This document shows positions 4,027-18,282 of a stretch of 18,282 nucleotides of DNA, in pieces. This DNA comes from a virus. Taxonomy: Duplodnaviria; Heunggongvirae; Uroviricota; Caudoviricetes. Both the position numbers and the translations under genes were made by a program. The stretch's first letter is position 1; every line of letters starts with the position of its first letter. The stretch lies in the IMG/VR virus record IMGVR_UViG_3300044259_000028, positions 1 through 18,282 of that record; one strand, written 5' to 3'. The notes under the pieces are model-generated. The model was given only the letters and a program-made list of their open reading frames with translations. It did not search any database and was not told the DNA's origin.

Positions 4027-4063
4027 GAACACACATCGCAACACATTTATAAAAGGAGTGAAA

Positions 4064-4153
4064 ATGCAAGTCATTATCTTGGTAGTACCATTCTTAGCTC
4101 TGTTTGTAGGTGTGGGCGCAATTCTTAACAACATTGCATCGGACTATGAATAA
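4064..4153 (+). CDS. 29-aa single-TM peptide MQVIILVVPFLALFVGVGAILNNIASDYE (not in ORF track)
   Basis: AAGGAG RBS; abuts the next ATG. Confidence 0.75.
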   Translation: MQVIILVVPFLALFVGVGAILNNIASDYE

Positions 4154-4498: not shown

Positions 4499-4508
4499 GA
4501 GGAAATTG

Positions 4509-4631
4509 ATGTTCACTTACCACACTGCAAAGAAACAGCTTGATGAAATGCTAGAAGCCGGTATAATCACTAATACCGAATTTCAAACGGCATCCTGCCT
4601 GCTGGTTTGGGCTGACATTCAGGAGTGCTAA
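4509..4631 (+). CDS. 40-aa protein with a SHOCT-like helix pattern (LDEMLEAGIITNTEF) (not in ORF track)
   Basis: GAGGA RBS; fills the gap between ORFs. Confidence 0.65.
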   Translation: MFTYHTAKKQLDEMLEAGIITNTEFQTASCLLVWADIQEC

Positions 4632-4632
4632 C

Positions 4633-4824
4633 ATGCACCGTAGTGAAGAACTGGAACGTATTCTGACTGATTTCTATCACAACAACTCAGAATACTGTGA
4701 TACAATGTCGCTGCAACAAATGATTAAGCTGTTTTCGCGTGACAGCTTCTGTCATCTCCACGCCGAGGCTTGCGAATATCTGTCCTCTAGTGCCTTTGGT
4801 GTTACATTTTACGCGAAATACTGA
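4633..4824 (+). CDS. Hypothetical protein, 63 aa
   Basis: AGGAG RBS. Confidence 0.75.
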   Translation: MHRSEELERILTDFYHNNSEYCDTMSLQQMIKLFSRDSFCHLHAEACEYLSSSAFGVTFYAKY

Positions 4825-4851
4825 TTTATCATCTTTCTTAGGAGAAATACA

Positions 4852-5283
4852 ATGTCCGATTTGCTGAATACTGCTGTAGCTGTCAAACAAACCTTGTTGA
4901 CCAAAGCTGTTGATATCCTGTTGAAAGGTGAACAGTCGCTTATCAAGCTGAATTACCTGTTTTTGTGTCATATGGACCACGGCCAAAACATGCTCGGCAA
5001 CGATGGCTGGCAAAACCTCGTTGAGCCGCATTTCCGACGTCAATTTTATGTGGCTGGCTCGGGTACTAACAACATTTCTAACTATGTCCTGCAAATGCTG
5101 GGCAAAGAGGAAAAATCCGCAGAACAAAATGATAACATCGCCTCGCGTGTTACGTTTGATGTACGCCTCGCATGGCTGGATGACTTTATCGCCAATCTGA
5201 AAAAGGGCGATCCTACGATGCCTAAGCTGTGGGGTAAGGAAGAAATTCAGCGTCAATACGAAAGCCGTGGCGGGGTGCTGTAA
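4852..5283 (+). CDS. Hypothetical protein, 143 aa (LFLCHM...RLAWLDDFI; distantly similar to 2181-2561)
   Basis: AGGAG RBS. Confidence 0.8.
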   Translation: MSDLLNTAVAVKQTLLTKAVDILLKGEQSLIKLNYLFLCHMDHGQNMLGNDGWQNLVEPHFRRQFYVAGSGTNNISNYVLQMLGKEEKSAEQNDNIASRVTFDVRLAWLDDFIANLKKGDPTMPKLWGKEEIQRQYESRGGVL

Positions 5284-5618
5284 TGAGTGTACACTACATC
5301 GTATCGATTCAGAACGACAAGGGCGAACACTGGTATATCCGCAGTGGTGAATGGAGCAAATGGGATTTAGCTTACAATGCTAGAGATGCCTACCAGTTCC
5401 CCACAATCCAAGCGGCTATGTCTGTAAGCGAGGATAACGACTACACGAAGCGCCATAACCACATGGATGGTAGCAGCTCCCCGCCTAGCCTGATTTGGAC
5501 CGGTTTAGGCATATGTAACAAGAAACCACAGGCAACCGGCTTTTTCGTTGTTCATCGTGTTGAAACATCTGAGCAAGTACGTATTCCAATTGCTGACAAG
5601 CTACTAGGACGCCAGTGA
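5283..5618 (+). CDS. Hypothetical protein, 111 aa
   Basis: TAATG coupling; followed by a terminator. Confidence 0.75.
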   Translation: MSVHYIVSIQNDKGEHWYIRSGEWSKWDLAYNARDAYQFPTIQAAMSVSEDNDYTKRHNHMDGSSSPPSLIWTGLGICNKKPQATGFFVVHRVETSEQVRIPIADKLLGRQ

Positions 5619-5623
5619 TGGTT

Positions 5624-5650
5624 AGACGCCCTTCGGGGCGTTTTCTTTTT
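5624..5650 (+). terminator. Rho-independent terminator
   Basis: AGACGCCC-TTCG-GGGCGTTT followed by a T-rich tail. Confidence 0.9.
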
Positions 5651-5757
5651 GTCTCTCACATCTTAAACGGAGATACTTTTCCACCCATAACATGATAATA
5701 GCACAAATACTAGAGAAAAAGAATAGGGAAAATTCACAACAATTTGTATAAACCCTC

Positions 5758-5786
5758 TTGCGCACTGAAAAACACATCGGTATAAT
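5758..5786 (+). promoter_or_regulatory. sigma70-type early promoter
   Basis: TTGCGC-17 nt-TATAAT; CATCGGT direct repeat flanks the -10. Confidence 0.75.
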
Positions 5787-5792
5787 TCTATT

Positions 5793-5940
5793 CATCGGTT
5801 GGCGATCTAGGGCAAAACGAAAGTTTGTAAGTCCACACAAGATTGCTAAACACGATAACCGCCAACATGCCGGTAAGATAAGAATGTGCGCTGCTAGGTC
5901 TGCTGATTGATAACCTAGCCAAGCTGATGCGAGACAGCAA
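5793..5940 (+). ncRNA. Candidate structured leader or small RNA
   Basis: No ORF. Stems GTTGGCG/CGCCAAC, GGGC/GTCC, AAAC-GAAA-GTTT, GCTAGGT/ACCTAGC and GCTG/CAGC lie directly downstream of a promoter. Confidence 0.45.
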
Positions 5941-5971
5941 CAAACACTAGCCAACTAACCAAGGAAATACT

Positions 5972-6235
5972 ATGAAAGCAGCTACCAACACCGTAAACAT
6001 CTTTGACCTGAAAGTAGGCAATGTTGTTCACTTCCACGGCGCACGCTTTGAAGTGATTAGCACTGAGGTGCAAGAGCACCGCTCCTTCCGCGGGGAGTTC
6101 AACGCTGATCGTGACACCGTAATGGTTGCCAAGGCGAAATGGCTGGATGGTGGGATTGTAAACGGTTATTTCGGCCCTAACAAAGATTGGACTTTCCAAG
6201 GCAACAAGAACGTGACCGAGGCTGTAGAAATCTAA
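5972..6235 (+). CDS. Hypothetical beta-rich protein, 87 aa (SH3-like pattern LKVGNVVHFHG)
   Basis: AAGGAAA RBS. Confidence 0.8.
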   Translation: MKAATNTVNIFDLKVGNVVHFHGARFEVISTEVQEHRSFRGEFNADRDTVMVAKAKWLDGGIVNGYFGPNKDWTFQGNKNVTEAVEI

Positions 6236-6315
6236 CAACAAGTAAGAAAAGGCTTGCTAACTCACCGGCAAGCCTTCATAATCCTAATACACCAACTTTA
6301 AACGGAAATATCACC

Positions 6316-6456
6316 ATGCGAACCAATAAAATTGAAATCACCTGCCCTGTAGCATTCGCTAAGATTTGCGCTCAGTTTGTGCGCGAAGGCGTAACCTTTG
6401 AAGCGCATGAGCGTGCTAACGGTGAGTTCCTAATCACCCTCACCGGAGGCTATTAA
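6316..6456 (+). CDS. 46-aa hypothetical protein ending GVTF..LTGGY
   Basis: ATG at 6316 with GGAAA upstream; the ORF track's 6187 start is an overextension. Confidence 0.7.
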   Translation: MRTNKIEITCPVAFAKICAQFVREGVTFEAHERANGEFLITLTGGY

Positions 6457-6458
6457 CC

Positions 6459-6746
6459 ATGAAAACAAGTGAAATCTTTAAACTTGTGCTGGACATTTAC
6501 GAGGATCGTTACAGGGACGGATACAAGCGTGGTTTGCCGGGCATTTGCGAAAACCTTTTGCGTGTAATCATCGACAGCGGTACTAACAGTAATGAACGTA
6601 GTATGACCCATCGTCTTTGTAAGAACGTGCTAGAGCGCTATAAACCAGAAGATGCTAGCCTTTATTGGTGGCATCCTGATGATGTGGAAACCCGTAAAAA
6701 GGTGTTACGTCAAATTATCAACGATTTGGAAAGTGAGGGTGAATAA
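6459..6746 (+). CDS. Hypothetical protein, paralog A (GIC..L / YWW / R..VL motifs)
   Basis: GGAGG RBS; motifs shared with 6853-7123. Confidence 0.8.
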   Translation: MKTSEIFKLVLDIYEDRYRDGYKRGLPGICENLLRVIIDSGTNSNERSMTHRLCKNVLERYKPEDASLYWWHPDDVETRKKVLRQIINDLESEGE

Positions 6747-6826
6747 TGTTTGACGAAAAGAAGTTCTTAGAAGCCTTGCAGAGCATCCCTGATGCAGAGG
6801 GTATCAAGCTGTTGGCACGTATGTAA
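6746..6826 (+). CDS. 26-aa peptide MFDEKKFLEALQSIPDAEGIKLLARM (not in ORF track)
   Basis: GAGG RBS, TAATG coupling. Confidence 0.6.
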   Translation: MFDEKKFLEALQSIPDAEGIKLLARM

Positions 6827-6852
6827 CGAATTTACAACAGAGGAAAAGATTT

Positions 6853-7123
6853 ATGAAAAGTAGTGAAATTCTCAAAAAAGACTTTGGAGCGCTTCAAAAA
6901 CGACTACAAAGAGCATCAACCGGGTATCTGTGATAATCTCTCAGGTGTGATTTACAACCTCAATTCGGGGCGTGATCCTGAATTGTTCAAGCAATGTATG
7001 CAGTATGTACATAAATACAAGCCAGATAACAGCCATCTCTACTGGTGGCCTACTGGTAACCGTGGAATCCGTATGGCGGTACTAGAGCTTGCTATTGCCG
7101 ATGCTTTGGCTGCTAACGACTAA
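6853..7123 (+). CDS. Hypothetical protein, paralog B; true start probably 6853 with a +1 frameshift in an A6 run
   Basis: AGGA RBS before ATG 6853; removing one A at 6874-6879 gives MKSSEILKKTLERF, matching paralog A MKTSEIFKLVLDIY. Confidence 0.75.
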
Positions 7124-7142
7124 AATAAAAGTACTATAATAC

Positions 7143-7161
7143 AGGCCCTTCGGGGCCTTTT
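7143..7161 (+). terminator. Rho-independent terminator ending the early cassette
   Basis: AGGCCC-TTCG-GGGCCT-TTT. Confidence 0.8.
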
Positions 7162-7238
7162 GTCACTCTAGAGTACTATCATGTGATACCTTACACTTCT
7201 TATATAACTACTAGTTATGATAATGACGTTTGATATGG

Positions 7239-7267
7239 TTGACAAGGGTATATAAGAGGTGTATAAT
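7239..7267 (+). promoter_or_regulatory. Perfect sigma70 promoter pointing into the non-coding region
   Basis: TTGACA-17 nt-TATAAT; no ORF downstream. Confidence 0.75.
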
Positions 7268-8540
7268 CCGCACTAGGCCGCACCCCTCAGTGCATCATAA
7301 GTAATTATTAGGAGCTTGACAATGTTGTTAAAATTGTTAACAGCTAAGATTGTTTCAGTTAGAAAACAAAAGAAAAAGTTAAAAGAGTTGATAAAGTTAT
7401 TAGCTCCTAATAGTAACAAATTAGTAACAACCTCTTATGCTGTACGGAGTCGATTAACAACAGGTTAAATATGCCTAGCTATTCTTAATAGGATATGCTA
7501 GGCATTTTGCTATCTATTGGCATTATTAGCAGAGTCTATTATCCACTGTATCATTATACCTTGTCCGTTAGGCATTGGCTAGTTAGCCATACAAGAAAAG
7601 AAAACATTAACAACTATTAGTTCACTAATAAAGTATAAGCTATAAACAGGCAATCCTATTAGTAAGCTAATAATCAATTAATAAACTAAATTGTTACTCA
7701 GCAATAAATAATCACTAAATAAACAATTCATTACTAGACTACTATGAAAGTGCTGCTATCTACTGGCATCGACAACATAGCACCTAGTAATAACCTCTTC
7801 TACATCGCCTATACGGGAAGCTGTCAAGAGCCTTATAAGAGCTTTACTATGTGCGAGGAAGCTATCAGGAGGCTAGAAGGAAAGACAGACCCGAGCCATG
7901 CGAGGGGATGTTGTTAAGGGCAGATGTATGTGCTTAATAGCAACATGTTGTTAGTATGTTATGTGTGGTGTACAGGGTGTGGCAGGAGGGTAAAAGGAGT
8001 GGAGGTCTATTAAAAGAATAGAAATTGTGCTTAGGTGTTTAATTCTCAAGGCCACATTTCTTAGCGGAAAGTATTCACAAATCTTCACGCTAGCTAAACG
8101 AAAGTGTCGATTAGTGCAGATTGTTAACAGAATGTAACGTCTTAGCATTATAGGCCCTAGGAGCGCTGCAATAGCCTAGCAATACCTCCCTACAGGGTAT
8201 GTCAGTACAGCACCACAGAGGGCTTATACGGGCTTCCTAGAGCATATCAAGGGCTACAGGTAGGCTATCCTAATCCCCATTAATGCCCCTATATGGATGT
8301 GCACAAATCTTATGCTAAAGCAACATGCATTTAAACGCGTTTAGAGGGCCTTAGAGCGCCTTTAACCTATTAGGCTAGGCAACTACCAACCTTCTCAGAA
8401 ATCGCCTCCTAGATATTTTAAAAGCCCTAGGATAGCGATAAATCATGCCCCGGCTCGGGTTTAATCACAAATACACCCTCCCAGTACATTTACAACCACC
8501 TAATTCCTGACAGCAATACGTAAAATAACTCTAAAAGATA

Positions 8541-8569
8541 TTGCACTCAACATAAAAGTAAGATATTAT
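8541..8569 (+). promoter_or_regulatory. Possible sigma70 promoter, convergent with the recombinase operon
   Basis: TTGCAC-17 nt-TATTAT. Confidence 0.45.
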
Positions 8570-8610
8570 GTTATTGTGGGAGAGCTATTATTTTTTTTTT
8601 TAATTTTTTA

Positions 8611-8650
8611 GAAAAACAAAAGGCCCTGACAAATTAATGTCAAGGCCCTT
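8611..8650 (-). terminator. Leftward terminator after the recombinase operon
   Basis: Imperfect AAGGCCCTGAC/GTCAAGGCCCTT stem followed on the minus strand by TTTTGTTTTT. Confidence 0.6.
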
Positions 8651-8659
8651 AATGTAATA

Positions 8660-8758
8660 TTATTCATCTTCTAAGAAGAAGTCTAGCCAGCTATCAGCTA
8701 ATGCTCCAATTGTAAGAAACAAAATAGCTAACGCAATAGTGTTAATAAGTATTTCCAT
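8660..8758 (-). CDS. 32-aa single-TM peptide MEILINTIALAILFLTIGALADSWLDFFLEDE (not in ORF track)
   Basis: AAGGAG RBS immediately after the recombinase stop codon. Confidence 0.7.
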   Translation of the reverse strand: MEILINTIALAILFLTIGALADSWLDFFLEDE

Positions 8759-8767
8759 CTACTCTCC

Positions 8768-9409
8768 TTATTTATTTTTAGTGCTGGAATATTGTGCAGC
8801 ACGAGCGTTAAATTCTTTTTCATAGCCATCAAGGTTATCTTTCCATTTCTGGATATTACGAGTAACGGTATTAGGGTGCACACCAAATTTGTCAGAGATT
8901 TCTTTATAAGTGAAATTGGTTTTGTGCATGGCAACCATTATGCGCAAGTCAGAGGGGTTGATCTTTAGAGGTTGGCCGAGAAGGGTCCCTTCACTAGCTG
9001 TGCGCGCAATACCAGCTTTAGTACGTTCGATAAGAAGATTACGTTCAAGTTCTGCACAAGCTGCCATAACAGTGAGCAGCATTTTACCCATAGGGCTAGT
9101 AACATCAACACCATCGAATTGCAATACGCGAAGCTTGATGCTACGTGCTTTGAATTCCTCTACAGTGATTAGAATATCACTAGCAGAGCGACCAAGACGG
9201 TCAATCATGGTGACGATGACGGTGTCGTTCTCTTGTGCACGAGAAAGCATTTCCTTGAAAGCAGGGCGGTCAAAAGCTTTTACGGAGCCTGAAACACCTT
9301 CATCGTTAGCCCATACATCAATTTTGAAACCAGCATCCTCAATAACCTTTTTCTGGTTGTCTGTGGTCTGTTCCTCAGTCGATACACGGGTGTAAGCGAA
9401 TATAGTCAT
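8768..9409 (-). CDS. Small serine recombinase (resolvase/DNA invertase family) with a C-terminal HTH
   Basis: YTRVST catalytic Ser motif, DRLGRS, ELERNLLIERTKAGI, G-QP arm then HTH (TYKEISDKFGVHPNTVTR); AGGAG RBS. Confidence 0.95.
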   Translation of the reverse strand: MTIFAYTRVSTEEQTTDNQKKVIEDAGFKIDVWANDEGVSGSVKAFDRPAFKEMLSRAQENDTVIVTMIDRLGRSASDILITVEEFKARSIKLRVLQFDGVDVTSPMGKMLLTVMAACAELERNLLIERTKAGIARTASEGTLLGQPLKINPSDLRIMVAMHKTNFTYKEISDKFGVHPNTVTRNIQKWKDNLDGYEKEFNARAAQYSSTKNK

Positions 9410-9439
9410 TTCAAGCTCCTAAACGGTTAATGTGCAGCC

Positions 9440-9468
9440 ATCTTAACGGTTCCTGTACCGGTCGTCAA
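9440..9468 (-). promoter_or_regulatory. sigma70 promoter of the recombinase, overlapped by AACGGTT/ACCGGT repeats
   Basis: Minus strand TTGACG-17 nt-TAAGAT; AACGGTT at 9422-9428 and 9445-9451. Confidence 0.75.
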
Positions 9469-9513
9469 TAGCTCCTACCGCCAGTGCGAATGAGAAGAAG
9501 ATTTTAGGTGTTT

Positions 9514-9696
9514 TCATGAGTTCCTGTCCAGAATATTGAATACGACATACCATGCTAGTGCAAAAATCAGCATACCCAAAAGCGCCACTGCTCCGAATAC
9601 TTCAATGGCCTTGACACATATAGCACCTAGAATTCCTGTCACAAGTAGAATGGTTATAGTTGCTACAAATGAGACAATAATTTTAAAAATTAACAC
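9514..9696 (-). CDS. 60-aa 2-TM membrane protein
   Basis: GGAGG RBS, hydrophobic. Confidence 0.75.
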   Translation of the reverse strand: MLIFKIIVSFVATITILLVTGILGAICVKAIEVFGAVALLGMLIFALAWYVVFNILDRNS

Positions 9697-9705
9697 ACTT
9701 CCTCC

Positions 9706-9927
9706 TTATTCGAATACCATCAAGTATGCCAACAGCCACAAGAATCCGAAGAACATCAACGGAAGCACGATGTGAGGTACCAGTATCACTAGATTTACAA
9801 CTAATGTGCTGATTGACAATAAAACTACCAAAGAGAGCAACGTAAATACTAGCGATTGCACTGCACGGGATGACATTATCCTACCAAATTTAGTATTGTT
9901 GTCAAAAAGACTAGTCCACCAGTTCAT
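9706..9927 (-). CDS. 73-aa 2-TM membrane protein
   Basis: AGGA RBS, hydrophobic. Confidence 0.75.
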   Translation of the reverse strand: MNWWTSLFDNNTKFGRIMSSRAVQSLVFTLLSLVVLLSISTLVVNLVILVPHIVLPLMFFGFLWLLAYLMVFE

Positions 9928-9936
9928 AGGCTATCC

Positions 9937-10152
9937 TTAGACGCGGTGGAACGTGGCGACGTGCAGGTCTTTGTATTTCACGTCATTAGCTTGTGCAATA
10001 TCTTCCAGTAAGTCACGTAAGACGGTGATAGCGTCTGGTGCGAAGAAGGAAGTGTATGTGCGAGTTCGCCATGCGCGAAGGTAAGGCGCTTGTAGTGAGT
10101 CGCCATCAGTGTTATAAGCCTCTGCAACTACGTGATATGTGCGGTTGAACAT
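9937..10152 (-). CDS. Hypothetical protein, 71 aa
   Basis: AAGGAG RBS. Confidence 0.8.
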   Translation of the reverse strand: MFNRTYHVVAEAYNTDGDSLQAPYLRAWRTRTYTSFFAPDAITVLRDLLEDIAQANDVKYKDLHVATFHRV

Positions 10153-10183
10153 TTTTATTCTCCTTAAAGGTTAGTGAGGTTAT

Positions 10184-10250
10184 ATTCTGACGCAGCGGAG
10201 CGCACATGTCAAGCACTTTTATTGACAAAAATGTTTCTGTATGTTATCAT
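10184..10250. promoter_or_regulatory. Back-to-back divergent sigma70 promoters
   Basis: Minus: TTGACA (10207-10212)-17-CAGAAT (10184-10189). Plus: TTGACA (10222-10227)-17-TATCAT (10245-10250). Confidence 0.8.
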
Positions 10251-10283
10251 TATAACATTTAATAATATATCGAAGGATAAGAA

Positions 10284-11054
10284 ATGCCTTTAACAAAGAA
10301 TTTAACACCACCTTCAGTGGCCTCTGAATTTGGTATGGCAGTAGGTTGGGGATTGGCTAAAGGCTATACAAGGGTTGCAGCTTTCGGGTATAACCCTGAT
10401 GTTGATGGTGCTACACTTCCTGAAGATATTTGGGTAGGCGGAGGCTTATACCCTTGGATGACTGCTTCTACGGCACTTGAGATTATTTCTACTAGTGCAA
10501 ATGACGCTAGTGCTGGAACTGGTGCACGAACTGTATTGGTTTCAGGGCTAGATATTAATTATGTTGCTGTTACACAACTCGTGACGCTTAACGGTACAAC
10601 TCCTGTGGCATTAGCCACCCCACTATTCCGTGTGAATAGCTTGCTTATTATGAGTGCAGGTAGTGGTCAGGTCAACGCTGGTCAGATTAACGTCCGAGAC
10701 ATTTCTGGTGGAACGATTAGAAGTATCATTGCAGTTGGTGCAGGTATTTCGCAGCAATCGGCCTACACAGTTCCTGCTGGTTTTACTTTGCAAGTAATTA
10801 GTAATTACACAGCTATTACAGGTAATGGGTCAACACGTACAGCAGACGTCTCTACGATGTTCAGAAGCCCTCTAGGCTTTTATCGTTTACCATTAACACT
10901 CACCGCGTCGGATGGTCATCCCTACAGACATGATGCTTCTCCGGGTATTATTGTGGCAGAGAAGACAGATTTTAGTATGCGCTGTATCAATGTTAGTAAT
11001 GACAATAGCGCAATTGTAGCCGCTTGGCTAGGAATTTTAAGGGCAAACACATGA
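10284..11054 (+). CDS. Conserved-looking beta-rich phage protein, possibly virion-associated
   Basis: AAGGA RBS; G/T/S/A/V-rich composition with AFGYNPDV..EDIW, STSANDASAGTGARTV and VTLNGTT segments. Confidence 0.8.
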   Translation: MPLTKNLTPPSVASEFGMAVGWGLAKGYTRVAAFGYNPDVDGATLPEDIWVGGGLYPWMTASTALEIISTSANDASAGTGARTVLVSGLDINYVAVTQLVTLNGTTPVALATPLFRVNSLLIMSAGSGQVNAGQINVRDISGGTIRSIIAVGAGISQQSAYTVPAGFTLQVISNYTAITGNGSTRTADVSTMFRSPLGFYRLPLTLTASDGHPYRHDASPGIIVAEKTDFSMRCINVSNDNSAIVAAWLGILRANT

Positions 11055-11215
11055 AAATTTATGAACTCACTAAGACTGCTGAGGCTGAAGCCTACAAACC
11101 TCAACTTGAAAGATTCTTTTATGACAAGATTTACATTGTAGAGAATCTTTCTGATTACGATAACTTACCAATTGAAGTAAAGAATTGGAGAATTGCGGTG
11201 GCTGATTGTGGCTGA
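11051..11215 (+). CDS. 54-aa hypothetical protein MKIYELTKTAEAE...
   Basis: ATGA coupling to the upstream gene. Confidence 0.6.
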   Translation: MKIYELTKTAEAEAYKPQLERFFYDKIYIVENLSDYDNLPIEVKNWRIAVADCG

Positions 11216-11483
11216 TACACGTGCAGATGTAGTTATTCCTAAAACTGTATGGACAGACTTATATGCAGCTTCAGGTATTGTCGTAGGAACTGCTGTGACT
11301 ATTTGGAATAAAGGTAGTAACACCTGCAACCTAGCAGTCAAGGCAACAGCGCCTACTGACACGAGAGGCACACCTCTTTTCACTGACTCTGAAGGAAATA
11401 ACATCAGTTTAACTTCTGGAGAATCTGGCTTGTGGGCCTATAGTGATAGAGGCACGATTCTTATGATTCAAGAGTTCAATTAA
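11208..11483 (+). CDS. Small beta-rich protein (MADTRADVVIPKTVWTDLYAASGIVVGT), possibly a virion decoration protein
   Basis: Likely GTG start at 11208; followed by a terminator. Confidence 0.7.
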   Translation: MADTRADVVIPKTVWTDLYAASGIVVGTAVTIWNKGSNTCNLAVKATAPTDTRGTPLFTDSEGNNISLTSGESGLWAYSDRGTILMIQEFN

Positions 11484-11488
11484 TAATA

Positions 11489-11525
11489 GCCCTAACACCG
11501 TTAAAAGTGTTAGGGCTTTGTTTTT
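11489..11525 (+). terminator. Rho-independent terminator between convergent operons
   Basis: GCCCTAACAC/GTGTTAGGGC 10-bp stem followed by TTTGTTTTT. Confidence 0.85.
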
Positions 11526-11730
11526 AGTAATTGAGTTTAGTTAATTCATACCTTTTACTCTCATATTGAGGATGGTCCCGGTGATTACAACCCATCCGTA
11601 TGGACCATTCTGTAAATGGATTGTTCAGACTGAAGAGTCCACAATATGTACAGTATAACTTACCAGCGGCACGCCTCTTGAATTCATGTGCCTCGTACTT
11701 GTAAGCATCCCGTTGTGCCATATTAGCCAC
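11524..11730 (-). CDS. 68-aa Cys/His-containing protein, possible Zn-binding (H..YCTYCG..GC..HP)
   Basis: Coupled to the rtcB stop; CxxC motif. Confidence 0.75.
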   Translation of the reverse strand: MANMAQRDAYKYEAHEFKRRAAGKLYCTYCGLFSLNNPFTEWSIRMGCNHRDHPQYESKRYELTKLNY

Positions 11731-12943
11731 CTTTACAGCACAGTACAGCTTTCAGAGTGTGCACAACTTCTACTAGACTTTTCTGATTTTCCATAACTAC
11801 ATCGATATCTTTGTAGCTACTAGGAATCTCGTCAAGTACTGCGTTGTCTTTACGACATTCTACACCCTCAGTCTGTGCAACTAGGTCTGCTACGGTGAAC
11901 TTCTTCCGTGCAGCCATACGCGACATTACACGTCCAGCACCATGAGAGCAGGAACAGTACGATTCTTTATTCCCTTTTCCTCGTACAATATACGAACGCT
12001 GTCCCATTGAACCCGGAATAATTCCAAGATCACCTTCACGTGCACGAATAGCTCCTTTTCGGGTAACCCACAGGTTTTGACCAAAGTGATTCTCCTTTTC
12101 CACGTAGTTGTGGTGACAGTTGATAGCTTCCTCAGTGAGTGTGAACTCTACCGGGATTTCTTTCCGCAGCACATCGATCACTTGCAGAAGCATTTCCTTA
12201 CGATTTTCTTTTGCATAATCTTGCGCCCATTGTACACCCTCGACGTAATCTTCGAACAGGTCAGTATCTTCTGGAAGGTATGCCAAGTCACCATCTGGCA
12301 AGGTGATGTGGAATTTCTCCATCAGTTCCTTACCTTTCGTGATGTACTTGCTACCGATCATGTTGCCGATACCACGGCTACCAGAGTGTAGCATTACCCA
12401 TACATCTTGATTTTCGTCAATACAAATCTCAATAAAGTGATTACCACTACCCAGCGTACCTACTTGGCTTGCAGCCTTCTTAGCTGCCTTTGCACGATCA
12501 CCGCCAAATACATTGTTAACAACACTATTAGGAATCATACCACACTCAGGCGTCATATGTTTATATACGTGACCGTCTTTATGCTCGCCACCAGTACCCA
12601 TAGGAACCGCTGCTTCGATAGCAGAACGGATTTTAGAAAGACTGTCAGGAAGTTGTGAAGCTTTCAGGGACAGACGAATAGCACACATGCCACAGCCAAT
12701 ATCAACGCCAACAGCGGCTGGCAAGATAGCCTTGTCAGTTGCAATAACTGTACCTACAGTAGAGCCGATACCGGCGTGACAGTCCGCCATAGCTGCAACT
12801 CCTTGACGTGCTACAAATGGTAAACGTGCTAGGTTTTTAAGTTGTTGTAAAGCAGTATCCTCAACTTCATCTGTCCAAATCTTAATTGGAACACTTCCAT
12901 CTTCTTTAATTAATTGCTTGTAAGGTACTTGACGCTCTGACAT
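11723..12943 (-). CDS. rtcB: RtcB family RNA ligase (3'-phosphate/2',3'-cyclic phosphate to 5'-OH), about 406 aa
   Basis: DCHAG, GVDIGCGM, GTLGSGNHFIE, HSGSRG, HHNY, RKGA, IPGSMG and HGAGR motifs; ATG 12943 with AAGGAGA RBS. Confidence 0.97.
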   Translation of the reverse strand: MSERQVPYKQLIKEDGSVPIKIWTDEVEDTALQQLKNLARLPFVARQGVAAMADCHAGIGSTVGTVIATDKAILPAAVGVDIGCGMCAIRLSLKASQLPDSLSKIRSAIEAAVPMGTGGEHKDGHVYKHMTPECGMIPNSVVNNVFGGDRAKAAKKAASQVGTLGSGNHFIEICIDENQDVWVMLHSGSRGIGNMIGSKYITKGKELMEKFHITLPDGDLAYLPEDTDLFEDYVEGVQWAQDYAKENRKEMLLQVIDVLRKEIPVEFTLTEEAINCHHNYVEKENHFGQNLWVTRKGAIRAREGDLGIIPGSMGQRSYIVRGKGNKESYCSCSHGAGRVMSRMAARKKFTVADLVAQTEGVECRKDNAVLDEIPSSYKDIDVVMENQKSLVEVVHTLKAVLCCKGG

Positions 12944-13448
12944 TTTTATCTCCTTTATGCTGATTTGATCTTCGTTCACCAGAAATTATTCTAGAAACCT
13001 GTGATTGCGATATTCCGTATTTTGAACCTAAATAAGATTGTGACATACCTCCTTGTTTGTAGTCAAGGATTAGTTTTGTAGCTTGCTTATTACTAAGTTT
13101 AGCACAGCCGCAACTTTCACCATAATTGTTTACTAATCCTTCTTTCCAAGCATGGTCAATCTGTTCCTGATGTGTAGCCCACTCTAAGTTACTCACGTGG
13201 TTATTTTCAACATCACCATCTTTATGGTTTACGGTAAGCTTATTTTCAGGGTTAGGTATGAATGCTGTAGCAACTAGTTGATGCACATAAAATCGTTTTA
13301 AGGCATTGTTAGCTGATAGTGCCAAGGTCATGTAACCTTTTCCTCTAGTATTCTTTACTAGTGTTCTCCAACTCTTTGTAGTATGCGACCAAACTCTTCC
13401 GTCCTCTGTTACAGAGTACAATCCTTCGTACCCTTTTATACTCTTCAA
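12906..13448 (-). CDS. NUMOD4-HNH homing endonuclease with a C-terminal HTH, free-standing
   Basis: IKGYEGLYSVTEDGRVWS (NUMOD4); VHQLVATAFIPNPENKLTVNHKDGDVENNHVSNLEW (HNH); SQSYLGSKYGISQSQVSRII (HTH); TTG start with AGGAG. Confidence 0.93.
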   Translation of the reverse strand: MKSIKGYEGLYSVTEDGRVWSHTTKSWRTLVKNTRGKGYMTLALSANNALKRFYVHQLVATAFIPNPENKLTVNHKDGDVENNHVSNLEWATHQEQIDHAWKEGLVNNYGESCGCAKLSNKQATKLILDYKQGGMSQSYLGSKYGISQSQVSRIISGERRSNQHKGDKNVRASSTLQAIN

Positions 13449-13843
13449 CTATTTTCTCCTATTAGTTCGTTTATAACATCAGAAAGTGCTCTTGCTTGGT
13501 TTACATCACTTGTTGCAAACCTATCACTGAGCACATAACCATTCCTACTAGCAGCTTTGTAAAGCTCTCGCATAAGTGGAAGGTTGTAGCTCGCCCATTC
13601 CTTCCACAATTTAAGGTATTCTACATACAAATCCTTAGTTGTGTCAAGTGCTGGCTTACCTTTTCCTAGCTTCCAATTAGTTCCACCAACATCATAACCT
13701 TTTACGTCACACTGGTAATGTTGCTCAATGGTTCTACCGTCTAGAAGTTTGGCAGTGAATGCACTGAAACGCTTATCACCTTTACTTGAGCACTCATATC
13801 CGCCAAACCTAGACCATGTGAGAAGATTATAGACCTTTTTCAT
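13445..13843 (-). CDS. Conserved-looking phage protein (YECSSKGDKRFSAF..DGRTIEQHYQ), possibly NADAR-like
   Basis: Clean ORF coupled on both sides; the family call is an inference from motif resemblance. Confidence 0.8.
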   Translation of the reverse strand: MKKVYNLLTWSRFGGYECSSKGDKRFSAFTAKLLDGRTIEQHYQCDVKGYDVGGTNWKLGKGKPALDTTKDLYVEYLKLWKEWASYNLPLMRELYKAASRNGYVLSDRFATSDVNQARALSDVINELIGENS

Positions 13844-14360
13844 AGAAATCTTTGATAAGATTATCAGCCATGAGCCAAAGAGTAGTATCGCCCTCTTTCA
13901 AGGCTTTGTCAAGAAGAATCCGCTTTTCTGGCAAATAAATATTACGTGCGTAAGTAGGGTCTTGAGCGATGTAGTCACGCATGTTGTCAATGCTATCCGC
14001 AATTTTAATAGTTTTAACTTCAGGTGAGTAGCGTTTGATACGTTGCACCTCTGCTTTAAATTTCATTGAGCGTTTAGTGCCGGAAGGATAAACGTCTTTA
14101 GTCAGTCCTTCTACGAGATATGCAACCTTGTCACCAAAAAGTGATCGAATAGTGTGGATAGTTACTTCTGTGTCCTCCACAACGTCATGCAGATAGGCTG
14201 CTATGAACATCTCTTCAGTAGTATCTTTGGCAAGATACAAAAGATTAGCGACCTTCTCAGGATGGGTGTAGTAAGGCAGCAGGGAATGTTTCCTAAACTG
14301 CCCTACAGCACTATGCGCTGCAATGGAGAAAACCTGTGCGTCATGTTTAGTCATTTGCAT
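13827..14360 (-). CDS. HD-domain hydrolase of the Mesh1/SpoT small alarmone hydrolase type
   Basis: H..GQFRK...PYYTHPEKVA, AAYLHDVVEDT, VAYLVEGLTK and IKIADSIDNMRD motifs. Confidence 0.88.
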   Translation of the reverse strand: MQMTKHDAQVFSIAAHSAVGQFRKHSLLPYYTHPEKVANLLYLAKDTTEEMFIAAYLHDVVEDTEVTIHTIRSLFGDKVAYLVEGLTKDVYPSGTKRSMKFKAEVQRIKRYSPEVKTIKIADSIDNMRDYIAQDPTYARNIYLPEKRILLDKALKEGDTTLWLMADNLIKDFYEKGL

Positions 14361-14377
14361 AATTTCCTCCGAACTTA

Positions 14378-14866
14378 TTAGTTCATTTTTGCGTAGCGTT
14401 CACCTTCAGTGTTTCCGTTACCAAATGCCGTTTGTCTCACGCCATTGTTATGATACCAAACACCATCACGGAATTCGAAGTTGCGCGACGGCAGGATAGT
14501 CTTATCGCCATCGTACAGTACAAAATAACGACCGTTTTTCTTAGGCTGGCCATCTTTGTCAATACTGTAGATGCGCTTACCACCAATCTTTTCTACTTTA
14601 CCAGCAGCTTCCTTTTCAGCAGCACGTGCAAGCAGCAGTTCAGCTTTCAAAGCCTTCTGCAATTCTACTACACGTTTCATATCTTTACGAATACCGCTTT
14701 TCATACCCTCGCCTTGCTCGATTTCTTCTACGAAGATTGGAATAGACTTGTTCATGCTTTTCAGCAGTGGCAACACTTCATTCAGTGCTTCAATTGATTT
14801 GTGCATGTTGTTAATACGTGCACGAGTAGTAGCGATCAGGGATTGGATTTGGTTAGATTTCAGCAT
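14378..14866 (-). CDS. Hypothetical protein with an N-terminal coiled coil
   Basis: AAGGAG RBS; helical heptad pattern. Confidence 0.8.
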   Translation of the reverse strand: MLKSNQIQSLIATTRARINNMHKSIEALNEVLPLLKSMNKSIPIFVEEIEQGEGMKSGIRKDMKRVVELQKALKAELLLARAAEKEAAGKVEKIGGKRIYSIDKDGQPKKNGRYFVLYDGDKTILPSRNFEFRDGVWYHNNGVRQTAFGNGNTEGERYAKMN

Positions 14867-14879
14867 ATTTTATTTCTCC

Positions 14880-15218
14880 TTATTGGGTAATTTTAGATAC
14901 ATCAAGCGTTGCTTGTGCATCACTCTTTGCAGCTTTATCTGCCTTAGCTTCACGAGCCTTCTGCAAGATTTCTGCACGTGTCAGTTTAGGTGCTGCCGTA
15001 ATAGACTCTCCTAGAGCTTTCAAAGCAGCTACAGTGTCCTTGTCACGAATCATAGTCACTGTGTAGGTGTTCAGCATAGGAATGCAATCTCCACTACCTG
15101 CTACTGGCACCCAACCATCTTTAACTCGACTGACAACTTCTTCTACAAATACTTCAATCGAGTATTCAACAACATCGTAACGCATTTCAGTGTTTACGTC
15201 AACCACTTTTTCACTCAT
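14880..15218 (-). CDS. Hypothetical protein, 112 aa
   Basis: GGAGG RBS. Confidence 0.8.
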   Translation of the reverse strand: MSEKVVDVNTEMRYDVVEYSIEVFVEEVVSRVKDGWVPVAGSGDCIPMLNTYTVTMIRDKDTVAALKALGESITAAPKLTRAEILQKAREAKADKAAKSDAQATLDVSKITQ

Positions 15219-15379
15219 TTCTTTCCTCCGTTAATTACTGCAAGAATTGCACCTACCCAACCTCCGTCTTTAAGGAGGGCTTCTTGAACCTCTAAAATAG
15301 CATCTTTATGGTCTTCTACACCATCAACCTTGATGCAACCGAGTGTTTTGTCGTTGTTCCTAAAGTACACGTTAAACAT
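15215..15379 (-). CDS. 54-aa protein MFNVYFRNNDKTLGCIKVDG... (not in ORF track)
   Basis: AAGGAG RBS, ATGA coupling, first gene after the promoter. Confidence 0.75.
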   Translation of the reverse strand: MFNVYFRNNDKTLGCIKVDGVEDHKDAILEVQEALLKDGGWVGAILAVINGGKK

Positions 15380-15409
15380 CTTTAACTCCTTTCAAAAATT
15401 GATTCAACC

Positions 15410-15494
15410 ATTATGCACCAACTCTTTCATCTTGTCAAGCACAAAATTGAGTATTTGTGCAAAACTTGACAAAGTGATGTGCTAGGTGTACAAT
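15410..15494. promoter_or_regulatory. Divergent sigma70 promoters with a central inverted repeat
   Basis: Minus: TTGACA (15433-15438)-17-CATAAT (15410-15415). Plus: TTGACA (15466-15471)-17-TACAAT (15489-15494). GCACAAA/TTTGTGC inverted repeat at 15439-15460. Confidence 0.85.
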
Positions 15495-15629
15495 GCAGTT
15501 CATAAGTTCCTAATAGTAGCTATAAAAGCTGTTAAGAACTCTATAGTTTTTCTTTTCAATACATAAAACTAATTACTAACGTATAGGTTATTTATAAGTA
15601 ACCTTAAGAACTTTAAAGGATATTTATAA

Positions 15630-15986
15630 ATGACAGACAAGACAGTAGCTGTACCTCAACCTATCTTCATCAAGAAGGTACACGAGCTTTCAAAGCTGCA
15701 TAAAAAACTTGAAAGTGTCAGCAATGACGTTATCGATGTTATTGTTGAAACAATGAATAGCAAAGATACAGACCCTAAGCTTAAGGTTGCGTGTGCCACA
15801 ACACTGGCAGACATGCACATCAAAGTAAGTGATATCATCTCAAAAGATCAGCTTACTCGTCAAATTGCAGAAATTAAAGCTAATGGACTAAAGACACCTC
15901 TAAAGCTTGAGAATGTTCCTGTAAAACCTTCTGGTCCTCGTAGAGATTTCTTTACAATCCAGTCAGTTGGCAATGTAGACGAATAA
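15630..15986 (+). CDS. Helical 118-aa protein, possible terminase small subunit
   Basis: AAGGA RBS gives a clear ORF; the TerS call is inference from size, helical pattern, a beta-like C-terminus and position before a tRNA cluster. Confidence 0.5.
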   Translation: MTDKTVAVPQPIFIKKVHELSKLHKKLESVSNDVIDVIVETMNSKDTDPKLKVACATTLADMHIKVSDIISKDQLTRQIAEIKANGLKTPLKLENVPVKPSGPRRDFFTIQSVGNVDE

Positions 15987-15990
15987 AAGC

Positions 15991-16019
15991 TTGACAAAGC
16001 TACTAACGTGTGTTAAGAT
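15991..16019 (+). promoter_or_regulatory. sigma70 promoter of the tRNA cluster
   Basis: TTGACA-17 nt-TAAGAT. Confidence 0.85.
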
Positions 16020-16134
16020 GCTTCTACGTTGAAATTTTAAACCTTTTCTCCTTGGTCTTGGTGGTTCTTGACCTACGATGTAGGACTCTGTATGGCGTCC
16101 GTAGCATACCGGAATAAACGTAACCCGGAATAAT

Positions 16135-16220
16135 GCTGTCTTGGCTGAGAGGTCGAAAGCACCGGCTTTGTAACCCGGCGAAGAAATTCCACGTAGGTTC
16201 AAATCCTACAGGCAGCACCA
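16135..16220 (+). tRNA. tRNA with a UGU (Thr) anticodon on a class II (Tyr/Ser-like) body
   Basis: GCTGTCT/AGGCAGC acceptor, A73, CCA; GCT/AGC D stem; loop TT-TGT-AA with a C31:C39 mismatch; 14-nt variable arm; GTAGG-TTCAAAT-CCTAC T arm. Confidence 0.8.
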
Positions 16221-16243
16221 CTAACTATTATAGGAATAATATT

Positions 16244-16282
16244 ATGAAACCTAGTAAGAAAACTAAAGTACGAAAACGCTAG
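16244..16282 (+). CDS. 12-aa Lys-rich micro-ORF MKPSKKTKVRKR
   Basis: AGGA 8 nt upstream of ATG; the last base of the stop codon is G1 of tRNA-Lys. Confidence 0.4.
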   Translation: MKPSKKTKVRKR

Positions 16283-16357
16283 GGCGTGTAACTCAATTGG
16301 CAGAGTAACTGGCTTTTAACCAGTAAGTTGTGGGATCGTTGCCCATCACGCCCACCA
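16282..16357 (+). tRNA. tRNA-Lys(UUU)
   Basis: GGGCGTG/CACGCCC, ACTGG-CTTTTAA-CCAGT, encoded CCA; non-canonical T loop ATCGTTG. Confidence 0.95.
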
Positions 16358-16380
16358 AGTAAATTATTTTCAAATATGTC

Positions 16381-16408
16381 TTGACAACAGGACTTATCTG
16401 TGTATAAT
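16381..16408 (+). promoter_or_regulatory. sigma70 promoter
   Basis: TTGACA-16 nt-TATAAT. Confidence 0.75.
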
Positions 16409-16419
16409 GTACGAACAAT

Positions 16420-16498
16420 CTGTGTGTAATGTCAGCCCGGTCAGACGGCCCTCTTTGGAAGTGGGAGGTCGGTGGTTCAAATCCACCCACGCAGACCA
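16420..16498 (+). tRNA. tRNA-Pro(UGG)
   Basis: C1:G72, A73, TT-TGG-AA loop, GGTGG-TTCAAAT-CCACC T arm, CCA. Confidence 0.92.
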
Positions 16499-16584
16499 TA
16501 AATTTAAGAACATTGTTGATAGGCGATAAGAAGAACGATTGCAAGCGTGCCCGTGAATACTTCTACAATGTTTTTAAATTTATG

Positions 16585-16613
16585 TTGACAAACTCTAAGA
16601 GTTATGTTAATAT
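16585..16613 (+). promoter_or_regulatory. sigma70 promoter with a palindrome in the spacer
   Basis: TTGACA-17 nt-TAATAT; spacer contains AACTCT-A-AGAGTT. Confidence 0.65.
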
Positions 16614-16624
16614 GTTGTTTCAAT

Positions 16625-16699
16625 GCCCATCTAGCTCAGTAGATTAGAGCACCTGAACTGTGTTTCAGGAGGTCGCTGGTGCAAATCCAGCGGTGGGCC
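16625..16699 (+). tRNA. tRNA-like gene or pseudo-tRNA with an abnormal anticodon loop and no CCA
   Basis: GCCCATC/GGTGGGC acceptor, GCTC/GAGC D stem, CCTGA-ACTGTGTT-TCAGG (8-nt loop), GCTGG-TGCAAAT-CCAGC; 3' end is C-GCT. Confidence 0.75.
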
Positions 16700-16700
16700 G

Positions 16701-16816
16701 CTCTGAATGAAGGACTAGTAATAGTCAGAACTAAAACGAGGCGTCATAAGTCCACGCCTACACTTAACACGGACGACTTGACGCGCAAGGTAATCAGGTT
16801 AAGTGGAACTTCAGAG
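16701..16816 (+). ncRNA. Candidate multi-stem ncRNA with a possible pseudoknot
   Basis: CTCTGAA/TTCAGAG closing stem; GACTA-GTAA-TAGTC; AGGCGT/ACGCCT; CACTTAAC/GTTAAGTG; loop GTCC complementary to GGAC. Confidence 0.55.
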
Positions 16817-16953
16817 GGACATTAAAGAATCTTAGCGGAAGCTGCGTAGTTAAATCTAATACTACTGAGGTCACTTGGCACCAAGAAACAGAACGCCACA
16901 AAATGATTAACTAGGTAGCATGCAACCCTCGTAGAAAAGCATGTAAGAACATT

Positions 16954-17029
16954 TGCGGGGTAGAGGAGATAGATCATCACTGGCCTCATAAGCCAAAGTA
17001 GGGCGGAGCGTTACCGCCTCCCGCAACCA
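16954..17029 (+). tRNA. tRNA-Met(CAU), initiator-like acceptor stem
   Basis: TGCGGGG/TCCCGCA-A-CCA; CT-CAT-AA loop; non-canonical T loop AGCGTTA; lacks the three consecutive G:C pairs in the anticodon stem. Confidence 0.88.
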
Positions 17030-17152
17030 GATCAGGGAGCACAACCTGTAGGAGCTATAAGCAACCTTCGACCCTGTGTATTTACAATGGAGTGATCGGC
17101 ATTGTACTATTAAAAAAGGAGATAATGACTCTTACCGAGAACTAAGAACAAT

Positions 17153-17231
17153 TGCCTAGAATCCGAGCAAGGTGCATGGACCTGACTGTTAATCAGAGGT
17201 TAGAGTGGTTCAATTCCACTGTAGGCAGCCA
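17153..17231 (+). tRNA. tRNA-Asn(GUU)
   Basis: CT-GTT-AA loop, G73, CCA, AGTGG-TTCAATT-CCACT T arm. Confidence 0.9.
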
Positions 17232-17322
17232 GAATGGAGCGTACCATCAATCTTATGATGAGCTTGAGAGTCTGTACGACACACTGGAAGCGAGTGACGA
17301 TACGTAAGCGTCAAGAATAAAT

Positions 17323-17397
17323 GGCCTTGTCGTATAATGGTTAGTACGAGGGATTGTCTATCCTTCTGTTGGAGTTCGATTCTCCACTAGGTCGCCA
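17323..17397 (+). tRNA. tRNA-Asp(GUC)
   Basis: AGGGA-TTGTCTA-TCCTT, G73, CCA. Confidence 0.93.
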
Positions 17398-17581
17398 GTA
17401 TATGCCCTTGGGCGTGTGCAGACAGGTAATGATAAAGAAGCCTGTAAGGAAAAAAAAATTCTTTGTCGAGAATAATTTACAGTCGAGTGCAACGCTGGTA
17501 AGTGGAGTTGCAGGTTAGTGTAGCCGTTAAAGATCGAAGCGCAACATAAAGGGTTATGTCCCACCCACTGTAATTAATAGT

Positions 17582-17654
17582 GCAGCCTATCTACTGGGAT
17601 AGGACTCACTCTTCCAAGGTGATGGAAACGGTTCGAATCCGTTAGGCTGCTCCA
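17582..17654 (+). tRNA. tRNA-Gly(UCC)
   Basis: GCAGCCT/AGGCTGC, U73, CCA, CT-TCC-AA loop; short, shifted D arm. Confidence 0.9.
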
Positions 17655-17786
17655 AATTCTGGCATGGTGTCAGTAAGTCCAAGCGACTGAAATACTAAGG
17701 ATGCAGAATAAGTGTCTAACTTCATTTAGACTTGCCTCAATCCGAGAGGGACTACAATAGAGGAATCAAAGGGTGCGAGTCCCATT

Positions 17787-17868
17787 GGGTTGGTGGCTAA
17801 TGGGAATTGGTACACCTAGCAGGTTTAGACCCTGTGCCTTTGAGGGTTCGAATCCCTCCCGACCCACC
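17787..17868 (+). tRNA. tRNA-Leu(UAG), atypical cloverleaf
   Basis: GGGTTGG/CCGACCC-A-CCA; TT-TAG-AC loop; extra nucleotides on the D side and a short variable region. Confidence 0.8.
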
Positions 17869-17890
17869 AGAATTTATTTTAATATTTATC

Positions 17891-17919
17891 TTGACAGAAG
17901 ATATTAATTGTTGTAAGAT
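17891..17919 (+). promoter_or_regulatory. sigma70 promoter
   Basis: TTGACA-17 nt-TAAGAT. Confidence 0.85.
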
Positions 17920-17929
17920 GTTTGTTATT

Positions 17930-18012
17930 GGGAGTATGGGGGAATTGGCAGACCCAGCGGACTTAAAATTCGCCGCGAAAGCGTCTCGGTTCGAATCCGT
18001 GTGCTCCTACCA
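17930..18012 (+). tRNA. tRNA-Leu(UAA)
   Basis: Class II cloverleaf, GCGGA-CTTAAAA-TTCGC, CGC-GAAA-GCG variable arm, A73, CCA. Confidence 0.95.
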
Positions 18013-18026
18013 AAGTATTTTAAGGT

Positions 18027-18101
18027 GTGTCTTTATCACATGTAGTAGTGACGCTCCTTGTGACGGAGTTTAAACGGGTGCAAGTCCCGTAGGACACCCC
18101 T
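18027..18101 (+). tRNA. tRNA-His(GUG), atypical (no G-1 in register, CCT instead of CCA)
   Basis: GTGTCTT/AGGACAC, C73, TCAC/GTGA D stem, GCTCC-TTGTGAC-GGAGT, T loop TGCAAGT. Confidence 0.8.
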
Positions 18102-18103
18102 TA

Positions 18104-18280
18104 AAGTATTTTTAGTTCTTAAGGTTTTAAGTTTCGATTTAGCTATGTGGTTCGATTCCCTAGCTCTGGTGAGCATAGTATGCGAAATGTATAACGACCA
18201 TGCCGTTCCTCATAAGGTCGCTCCTTTGGACAACGTTAGGAAGGAAATATCGGCCCTAGACTTAAGAACTAAAAATATTT
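18104..18280 (+). ncRNA. Candidate ~177-nt ncRNA closed by a 20-bp stem
   Basis: 18104-18123 pairs with 18261-18280 (one G:U); several internal hairpins, one carrying GG-TTCGATT-CC. Confidence 0.55.
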
Positions 18281-18282
18281 GC

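Follow-up and report, generated by a model that had tools for sequence, protein, structure and literature searches.

We analysed an 18,282-nt stretch of viral DNA (IMG/VR record IMGVR_UViG_3300044259_000028; hereafter the window) in which a leftward operon encoding a small alarmone hydrolase (SAH), a 132-aa protein of predicted NADAR fold and the RNA ligase RtcB lies close to a rightward tRNA array. This window covers bases 1-18282 of an 82,282-bp contig with matching ends, from an uncultured and apparently lytic tailed phage (Caudoviricetes) of sediment; a search of sequencing runs gave only two sediment DNA runs, and no RNA run, as its possible source. The phage shares about 40% identity with Otagovirus- and Pakpunavirus-like Pseudomonas phages in its large terminase (PHROG 979), and its gene layout matches that of phiPsa374: leftward accessory operon, short rightward gene, tRNA array, terL and portal. 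An original prediction, made from the window alone, had read operon and array together as one counter-defence island.

Eight same-strand open reading frames (ORFs) form a 3.9-kb run between a predicted promoter and a two-way terminator (Table 1). The leftward operon of the original prediction is thus found at its place, although that description had omitted a NUMOD4-HNH gene and the three ORFs at the head of the operon. Judging by spacing, the genes would be co-transcribed, but the run could be divided at extra promoter-like sites (13912-13884, 13647-13618). The operon had also been described as divergent from the tRNA array, but it directly faces a 118-aa gene with a promoter-like site ahead of it (15466-15494), a probable small terminase from its position, and the tRNAs have predicted promoters of their own.

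The operon enzymes and the protein of predicted NADAR fold

The SAH is a stand-alone protein of 177 aa without a synthetase domain, matching Pfam HD_4 well above the cut-off (E 2.7e-14; 53.6 bits against 27.2), with Lmo0812, Rel hydrolase domains and Mesh1 as its best PDB matches. The catalytic set (R, H, HD, ED, KxxD, N) is complete (R23, H33, H58-D59, E62-D63, K119, D122, N126), and H33, H58, D59, E62, D63, K119, D122 and N126 are invariant, which bears out the earlier call of a Mesh1/SAH-type HD hydrolase. Over 144 aa it is 39% identical to SSU5_099 of Salmonella phage SSU5, which we take to be PaSpo, as the annotated HD protein within the 100 kb of SSU5 examined. PaSpo and PbcSpo (phage PVP-SE1) have the same single HD_4 domain and catalytic set, and they neutralise all five toxSAS toxins, CapRel, PhRel, PhRel2, FaRel2 and FaRel (PMC7229694); PaSpo takes the FaRel2 modification off tRNA (PMC11559606). 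Stand-alone phage SAHs strip the toxSAS-added 3'-pyrophosphate from tRNA CCA ends and also degrade alarmones (PMC7229694, PMC11559606), so that the reversal of tRNA-CCA pyrophosphorylation put forward earlier is established for phage homologs and, by analogy, may extend to the SAH of the window. Unlike the latter, the SSU5 gene has no RNA ligase or tRNA array adjoining it.

RtcB is full-length, covering Pfam RtcB model positions 1-426 (E 7.7e-122, 408 bits), and every catalytic motif, contributing the Mn ligands and the guanylated His, is intact (DIGCG, GSGNHF, HSGSRG, NCHHN, PGSM, HGAGR), in agreement with the prediction of an RtcB in the operon. The rtcB ribosome-binding site is strong. Identity is 78-82% to the RtcBs of the clade and 69% to that of Bordetella phage PHB04, and a count over 50,697 phage records found RtcB in 704. 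The protein is not of the RtcB2 type, which is PrfH-linked and acts in rRNA repair, as it scores below the cut-offs of NF007153 (175 against 407) and TIGR03073 (140 against 271.8 bits). The operon enzymes, as far as their motifs tell, look catalytically intact.

RtcB joins 2',3'-cyclic-phosphate or 3'-phosphate ends to 5'-OH ends, and the range of nucleases that it had been predicted to counter was too broad. RloC excises the wobble base (PMC7824862), so ligation alone cannot restore the tRNA; cuts by the PARIS nuclease AriB leave 3'-OH/5'-phosphate ends (PMC12409363), which are not RtcB substrates. In the literature searched, we found no study in which RtcB of a phage overcomes a defence system.

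A homing endonuclease gene (NUMOD4, HNH_3 and HTH domains; Pfam HNH_3 3e-9, PHROG 59 3e-53) separates the NADAR-like gene from rtcB, and its 3' end contains the ribosome-binding site and start of rtcB. This overlap, the absence of the gene from that place in relatives L199 and L200, where the 132-aa gene directly precedes rtcB, and a window RtcB N-terminus unlike the form common to six relatives are as expected of a homing-type insertion, and the gene may well be a selfish insert. The last gene of the operon had been described as encoding a small Zn-type protein; the Cys/His-rich product is there (PHROG 7020), with only a weak Zn-ribbon match (E 0.035) and no informative match in the Atlas.

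The 132-aa protein had been called possibly NADAR-like, a suggestion that its predicted structure strengthens. With the AlphaFold model (pLDDT 93.6), a VIA structural search ranked three solved NADARs first (Z 8.8, 8.1 and 7.6, the next match having Z 4.3); the alignment to 8bat, at Z 8.8, covers 122 residues with a root-mean-square deviation of 3.6, and identity to NADARs is 14-17%. Foldseek agrees (NADAR probability 0.99, E 0.024), and the Atlas structure match is to DarT1-associated NADAR clusters (TM 0.68). Across 154 domains, the four residues E40, Q44, K48 and D107 are each at least 95% conserved, and E40, K48 and D107 match, by eye only, the catalytic Glu, Lys and last-strand residue of NADARs. 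The predicted fold is the YbiA/NADAR fold of AdfN (T4 gp30.3) and the DarG1 antitoxins (PMC11825919, PMC11125620); the conserved Glu...Lys pair would correspond to E36/K43 of gp30.3, and a last-strand Asp is found in DarT1-linked NADARs too. Compared with AdfN and DarG1, the protein is smaller and belongs to a separate family that lacks a sequence-level match to Pfam NADAR or gp30.3. The Pfam NADAR models PF08719 and PF22397 match none of 116 homologs and nothing in the genome of the window phage, so the family is divergent, and the fold is not contradicted. A PF22397 search of that genome and 33 other phage genomes also returned nothing, and was uninformative as controls were barely detected either; no NADAR signal came from a family profile against PDB sequences, hhalign against T4 gp30.3 or ESM Atlas features.

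The family, PHROG 9995, has about 1,100 homologs, including proteins of phiKZ-like and N4-like phages, and its domain is found fused to DUF4326, SLOG, DUF488 and RNase H, the company that NADARs keep in phage NAD/ADP-ribose systems (PMC9503650). These fusions point to NAD/ADP-ribose chemistry, and a role on tRNA is not indicated. Characterised phage NADARs remove guanine-linked ADP-ribose, countering DarTG1 on DNA (PMC11825919), and NADARs can take G-linked ADP-ribose off RNA in vitro (PMC12945103); on the strength of the modelled fold, the 132-aa protein probably removes guanine ADP-ribose. The domain also occurs within giant proteins of 1,000-6,000 aa (P0168-P0266), and its RNase H fusions are found in jumbo phages.

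Synteny within and outside the clade

We surveyed 15 non-redundant clade members showing the operon, the window included. Locus scans that started from one sequence, either the 118-aa gene or the SAH, had returned no loci, and alignments with look-ups of the encoding contigs were used instead. As most members were recruited through SAH similarity, the apparent constancy of SAH is partly a product of selection. RtcB follows SAH within 0-2 genes in 10 of the 15 (window, G001, G008, L199, L200, L202, L204, L205, L207, L208) and is missing after it in five (G012, G046, G047, G048, L201); the complete relatives G012, G046 and G047 have no RtcB anywhere, though SAH and the tRNA array are kept. Only three members carry the NADAR-like gene (L199 and L200 also have SAH, NADAR and RtcB in a row), which appears to be a sporadic insert, and the slot between SAH and RtcB is otherwise filled by variable small genes, including a second HNH family. 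The array keeps its position before terL and its order with or without RtcB, and these look like inherited clade architecture.

The synteny survey suggested by the original prediction therefore yields a recurring SAH-RtcB pair and no fixed three-part module: RtcB (10/15), the NADAR-like gene (3/15) and the array, independent of both, are not kept together as a unit. Because RtcB is absent from G012, G046 and G047, the NADAR-like gene is sporadic and the array independent, these comparisons argue that SAH and RtcB are a real but optional, putatively translation-protecting pair, and not part of an obligate island with NADAR and tRNAs. The PHROG 7020 gene is present in the RtcB-less relatives L201, L231 and L254 as well, and L205 has a second, divergent HD_4 gene straight after RtcB (11759-12280; order SAH-RtcB-HD).

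Among viral loci centred on RtcB, SAH was found in 3/80 and five or more tRNAs in 4/80; NADAR-like loci outside the clade had RtcB, SAH or such an array in 0/80. SAH-centred loci had an RNA ligase in 16/80 and five or more tRNAs in 18/80, and most of those with a ligase or array represent one lineage, in which a tRNA array is followed by AAA kinase, metallophosphoesterase, SAH and Rnl1. The run in this lineage (L216, L245, L252, L258, L268, L270, L273, L299), which also has a DSP phosphatase between array and kinase, has the predicted make-up of a complete heal-and-seal kit that includes SAH. The same kinase, metallophosphoesterase, SAH and Rnl1 set is present in phiPsa374, where the HD protein is again PHROG 990, and the same SAH-ligase layout has been described in Pakpunavirus Adele and already read as anti-defence (PMC12846349). 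Altogether, three to four independent lineages show the SAH-ligase link, a suggestive number that falls short of statistical proof.

The operon thus resembles that of Pakpunavirus and Otagovirus in having an SAH-type hydrolase upstream of an RNA ligase, divergent from a tRNA cluster and terL; it differs in that they have a kinase, a phosphoesterase and Rnl1 where the window clade has RtcB, and no NADAR-like gene was seen in that slot. Caulobacter phage CcrRogue, an unrelated phage, has RtcB and an SAH-type hydrolase (31% identical to that of the window) in one same-strand run, but in the opposite order, eight genes apart and with no tRNA within 5 kb. In Psa21 and D6, RtcB, SAH and NADAR-like genes are all present, more than 40 kb apart. 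A phage ligase and tRNAs set against anticodon nucleases are familiar from the T4 Pnk/Rnl1 repair of PrrC-cut tRNA-Lys and from jumbo-phage suites (PMC7824862), with the difference that T4 heals and seals where the window phage has one-step RtcB.

The tRNA array and two structured RNAs

The predicted array of 11 tRNA or tRNA-like genes is confirmed in number, nine being called by ARAGORN at default settings and two, Met(CAT) and Asn, at a relaxed threshold. Beyond the window it goes on to about 19.2 kb, stopping short of the large terminase gene with a total of at least 16-17 genes; arrays of the clade hold roughly one tRNA per amino acid. An ARAGORN call of Ala(AGC) was discarded as a miscall of Leu(UAG) (Table 1).

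The tRNA-Thr(UGU) has a long variable arm of class II type and a G1-C72/C2-G71/A73 acceptor. Of 16 clade arrays, 7 have this form, each time in the Thr slot; its sequence comes in several versions, of which one shows compensatory changes, and the other arrays carry an ordinary Thr tRNA. FaRel2 picks out Thr and Gly tRNAs that have a short arm (PMC11559606), and at least one of its four determinants is missing from most Thr and Gly tRNAs of the clade. We did not count this as evidence, because positions 4 and 5 drift freely and FaRel2 comes from a Firmicute. The tRNA-like gene with an abnormal anticodon loop stands behind its own promoter-like site; no counterpart was found in relatives, and it may therefore be a decaying tRNA.

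Two structured RNAs lie within the array. The 116-nt RNA is a multi-stem structure with an invariant core, in which 9 of 28 pairs show two-sided changes across three phages (window, L199, L207); an Rfam scan gave no match, and hammerhead and HDV-like readings were dropped by eye, as the core is not kept in L199 and the stem topology is wrong. The 177-nt RNA, between tRNA-His and tRNA-Phe, has a 20-bp terminal stem with covariation, a conserved hairpin that contains GG and a T-loop motif, and had no Rfam match at E up to 1. We rejected its reading as a YrlA bacterial Y RNA in view of the lack of an Rfam match and of any TROVE gene in the genome of the window phage; in L205, moreover, which does have a TROVE gene, the RNA is at a separate place. 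Four relatives have TROVE/Ro60 inserted in their tRNA array (L202, 3874-5256; L205, 4627-5946; L212; L254), placed between two Leu tRNAs in L202, L205 and L254, and no YrlA match at the Rfam cut-off was found in the TROVE-bearing relatives. Both RtcB and TROVE have been listed among jumbo-phage RNA-repair genes (PMC7824862).

Table 1 Features of the operon and of the tRNA array in the window
Feature	Position	Strand	Basis or remark
Bidirectional intrinsic terminator	11488..11517	both	predicted on each strand
Small Cys/His-rich protein, 68 aa, PHROG 7020	11524..11730	-	PHROG match
RtcB RNA ligase, 406 aa from ATG at 12943	11723..12943	-	Pfam RtcB
NUMOD4-HNH homing endonuclease, 180 aa	12906..13448	-	Pfam, PHROG 59
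Divergent NADAR-fold protein, 132 aa, PHROG 9995	13445..13843	-	predicted structure
SAH (Mesh1/PaSpo-like HD_4 protein)	13827..14360	-	Pfam HD_4, PHROG 990
Hypothetical protein, 162 aa	14378..14866	-	no family match; partial homologs in L199, L201, L204, L207
Conserved hypothetical protein, 112 aa	14880..15218	-	no family match; syntenic in relatives with or without RtcB
Conserved hypothetical protein, 54 aa, operon gene 1	15215..15379	-	no family match; 48-60% homologs, same place, most relatives
Sigma70-like promoter, operon start	15410..15438	-	11/12 consensus match, predicted
Conserved gene heading rightward unit, 118 aa	15630..15986	+	no family match; before tRNA array and terL in relatives
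tRNA-Thr(UGU), long variable arm	16135..16220	+	ARAGORN
tRNA-Lys(UUU)	16282..16357	+	ARAGORN, Rfam
tRNA-Pro(UGG)	16420..16498	+	ARAGORN, Rfam
tRNA-like gene, abnormal anticodon loop, no CCA	16625..16699	+	Rfam tRNA, 50.2 bits
Conserved structured non-coding RNA, 116 nt	16701..16816	+	fold z -3.2; homologs in L207, L199
tRNA-Met(CAU), initiator-like	16954..17029	+	ARAGORN, relaxed
tRNA-Asn(GUU)	17153..17231	+	ARAGORN, relaxed; 98% to one relative's copy
tRNA-Asp(GUC)	17323..17397	+	ARAGORN, Rfam
tRNA-Gly(UCC)	17582..17654	+	ARAGORN, Rfam
tRNA-Leu(UAG)	17787..17869	+	anticodon arm at 17819; fills relatives' Leu(TAG) slot
tRNA-Leu(UAA)	17930..18012	+	ARAGORN, Rfam
tRNA-His(GUG)	18027..18100	+	ARAGORN
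Conserved structured RNA, 177 nt	18104..18280	+	fold z -3.45; full-length homologs in L204, L205, L207

Candidate roles and rival explanations

On balance, we lean towards reading the operon as an early or middle accessory unit of a lytic phage family, supplying a set of separately acting counter-measures (SAH, RtcB, NADAR) early in infection beside an inherited tRNA array. The SAH would keep tRNA ends chargeable after infection, against toxSAS or alarmones, and RtcB would reseal breaks made by metal-independent PrrC-type anticodon nucleases, doing alone the job performed by kinase, phosphoesterase and Rnl1 beside SAH in Pakpunavirus and Otagovirus. The NADAR-fold protein would most likely meet a different defence, reversing DarT1-type ADP-ribosylation or clearing ADP-ribose signals. 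Phage tRNAs can replace damaged host tRNAs, and the inherited array may top up the tRNA pool. Several points weigh against this reading: the substrate of the SAH cannot be read from its sequence; the SAH-RtcB link within the clade could be plain vertical inheritance, because the 54- and 112-aa genes are equally conserved in place; and the NADAR call is a predicted fold with Z of about 8-9, 14-17% identity and a motif matched by eye.

Defence need not be involved at all if SAH serves to lower the stringent response, the tRNAs increase translation capacity in starved hosts and RtcB mends incidental breaks, with the operon as a place where small mobile genes often insert. The near-complete tRNA set of the clade is in keeping with such a role, as are the two HNH families and unrelated small ORFs that occupy the SAH-RtcB slot and the bacterial tRNA arrays with rtcB and HNH that serve general translational stress (PMC8421152). 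We nevertheless consider it unlikely, given that both phage SAHs assayed so far neutralised all five toxSAS toxins (PMC7229694), that phage tRNAs have been shown to be escape factors for retron-Eco7 and PARIS, and that patchy RtcB better suits shifting defence pressure than a constant need. It is likewise unlikely that SAH is chiefly an RNA 3'-end cleaner serving ligases (Rnl1 elsewhere, RtcB here) and not an alarmone or toxSAS counter. Its neighbours elsewhere (AAA kinase, metallophosphoesterase, DSP phosphatase) would suit that task, Kurata et al. suggested that such hydrolases may act as 3'-phosphatases in the manner of Pnk (10.1101/2021.04.30.441581), and the ligases and tRNA arrays at SAH-centred loci stand against none at the NADAR-like control loci; yet those loci come mostly from one lineage, the three to four or so independent lineages being few and kinship inflating Fisher P values, RtcB requires no end healing, and SAH is retained where no ligase adjoins.

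The original prediction, in which SAH, NADAR-like protein, RtcB and tRNA array are one co-selected protect-repair-replace module against translation-targeting abortive infection, now seems improbable to us. Every part does lie within 6.8 kb around back-to-back promoters, L199 and L200 share the SAH-NADAR-RtcB run, TROVE/Ro60 joins the array in four relatives, and NADARs act on G-linked ADP-ribose of RNA in vitro (PMC12945103). However, the parts are gained and lost separately; the array, which has about one tRNA for each amino acid, is found at one place and in one gene order whether RtcB is there or not; and loci elsewhere seldom join RtcB to SAH or an array and never, in our sample, the NADAR-like gene to any of them. 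A tightly co-ordinated form of tRNA protection, in which SAH is the 3'-end repair activity paired with RtcB, PHROG 9995 strips ADP-ribose from tRNA or mRNA and not DNA, and the long-arm tRNA-Thr(UGU) and two structured RNAs serve as escape substrates or decoys, is in our view very doubtful.

Counter-defence by phage ligases and tRNAs, the anti-toxSAS activity of phage SAHs and phage NADARs are already published. New here are the apparent RtcB-for-Rnl1 variant across an uncultured family, the predicted NADAR fold for PHROG 9995, and the comparative evidence suggesting conservation of the long-arm tRNA-Thr(UGU) and both structured RNAs. If our favoured reading of separate counter-measures is true, the operon adds to the SAH-plus-ligase arrangement of Pakpunavirus-like phages a form with RtcB as the ligase, and offers a natural gene pair for asking whether RtcB from a phage can overcome PrrC-type defence. 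Of wider use is the PHROG 9995 fold, which would turn about 1,100 phage proteins that now lack annotation, among them products of conserved genes in phiKZ-like and N4-like phages, into candidate ADP-ribose erasers.

Some further genes were seen along the way. Away from the operon, the contig of the window phage has Macro domain, NAMPT, PRPP kinase and YAcAr SLOG genes clustered at 42437-48897 and, 58 kb away, a second, ATP-grasp RNA ligase of PHA02142 type (76420-77577). The window also encodes a serine resolvase (8768-9409), despite the apparently lytic nature of the phage; in relatives, resolvases lie within the same accessory operon, frequently immediately before SAH.

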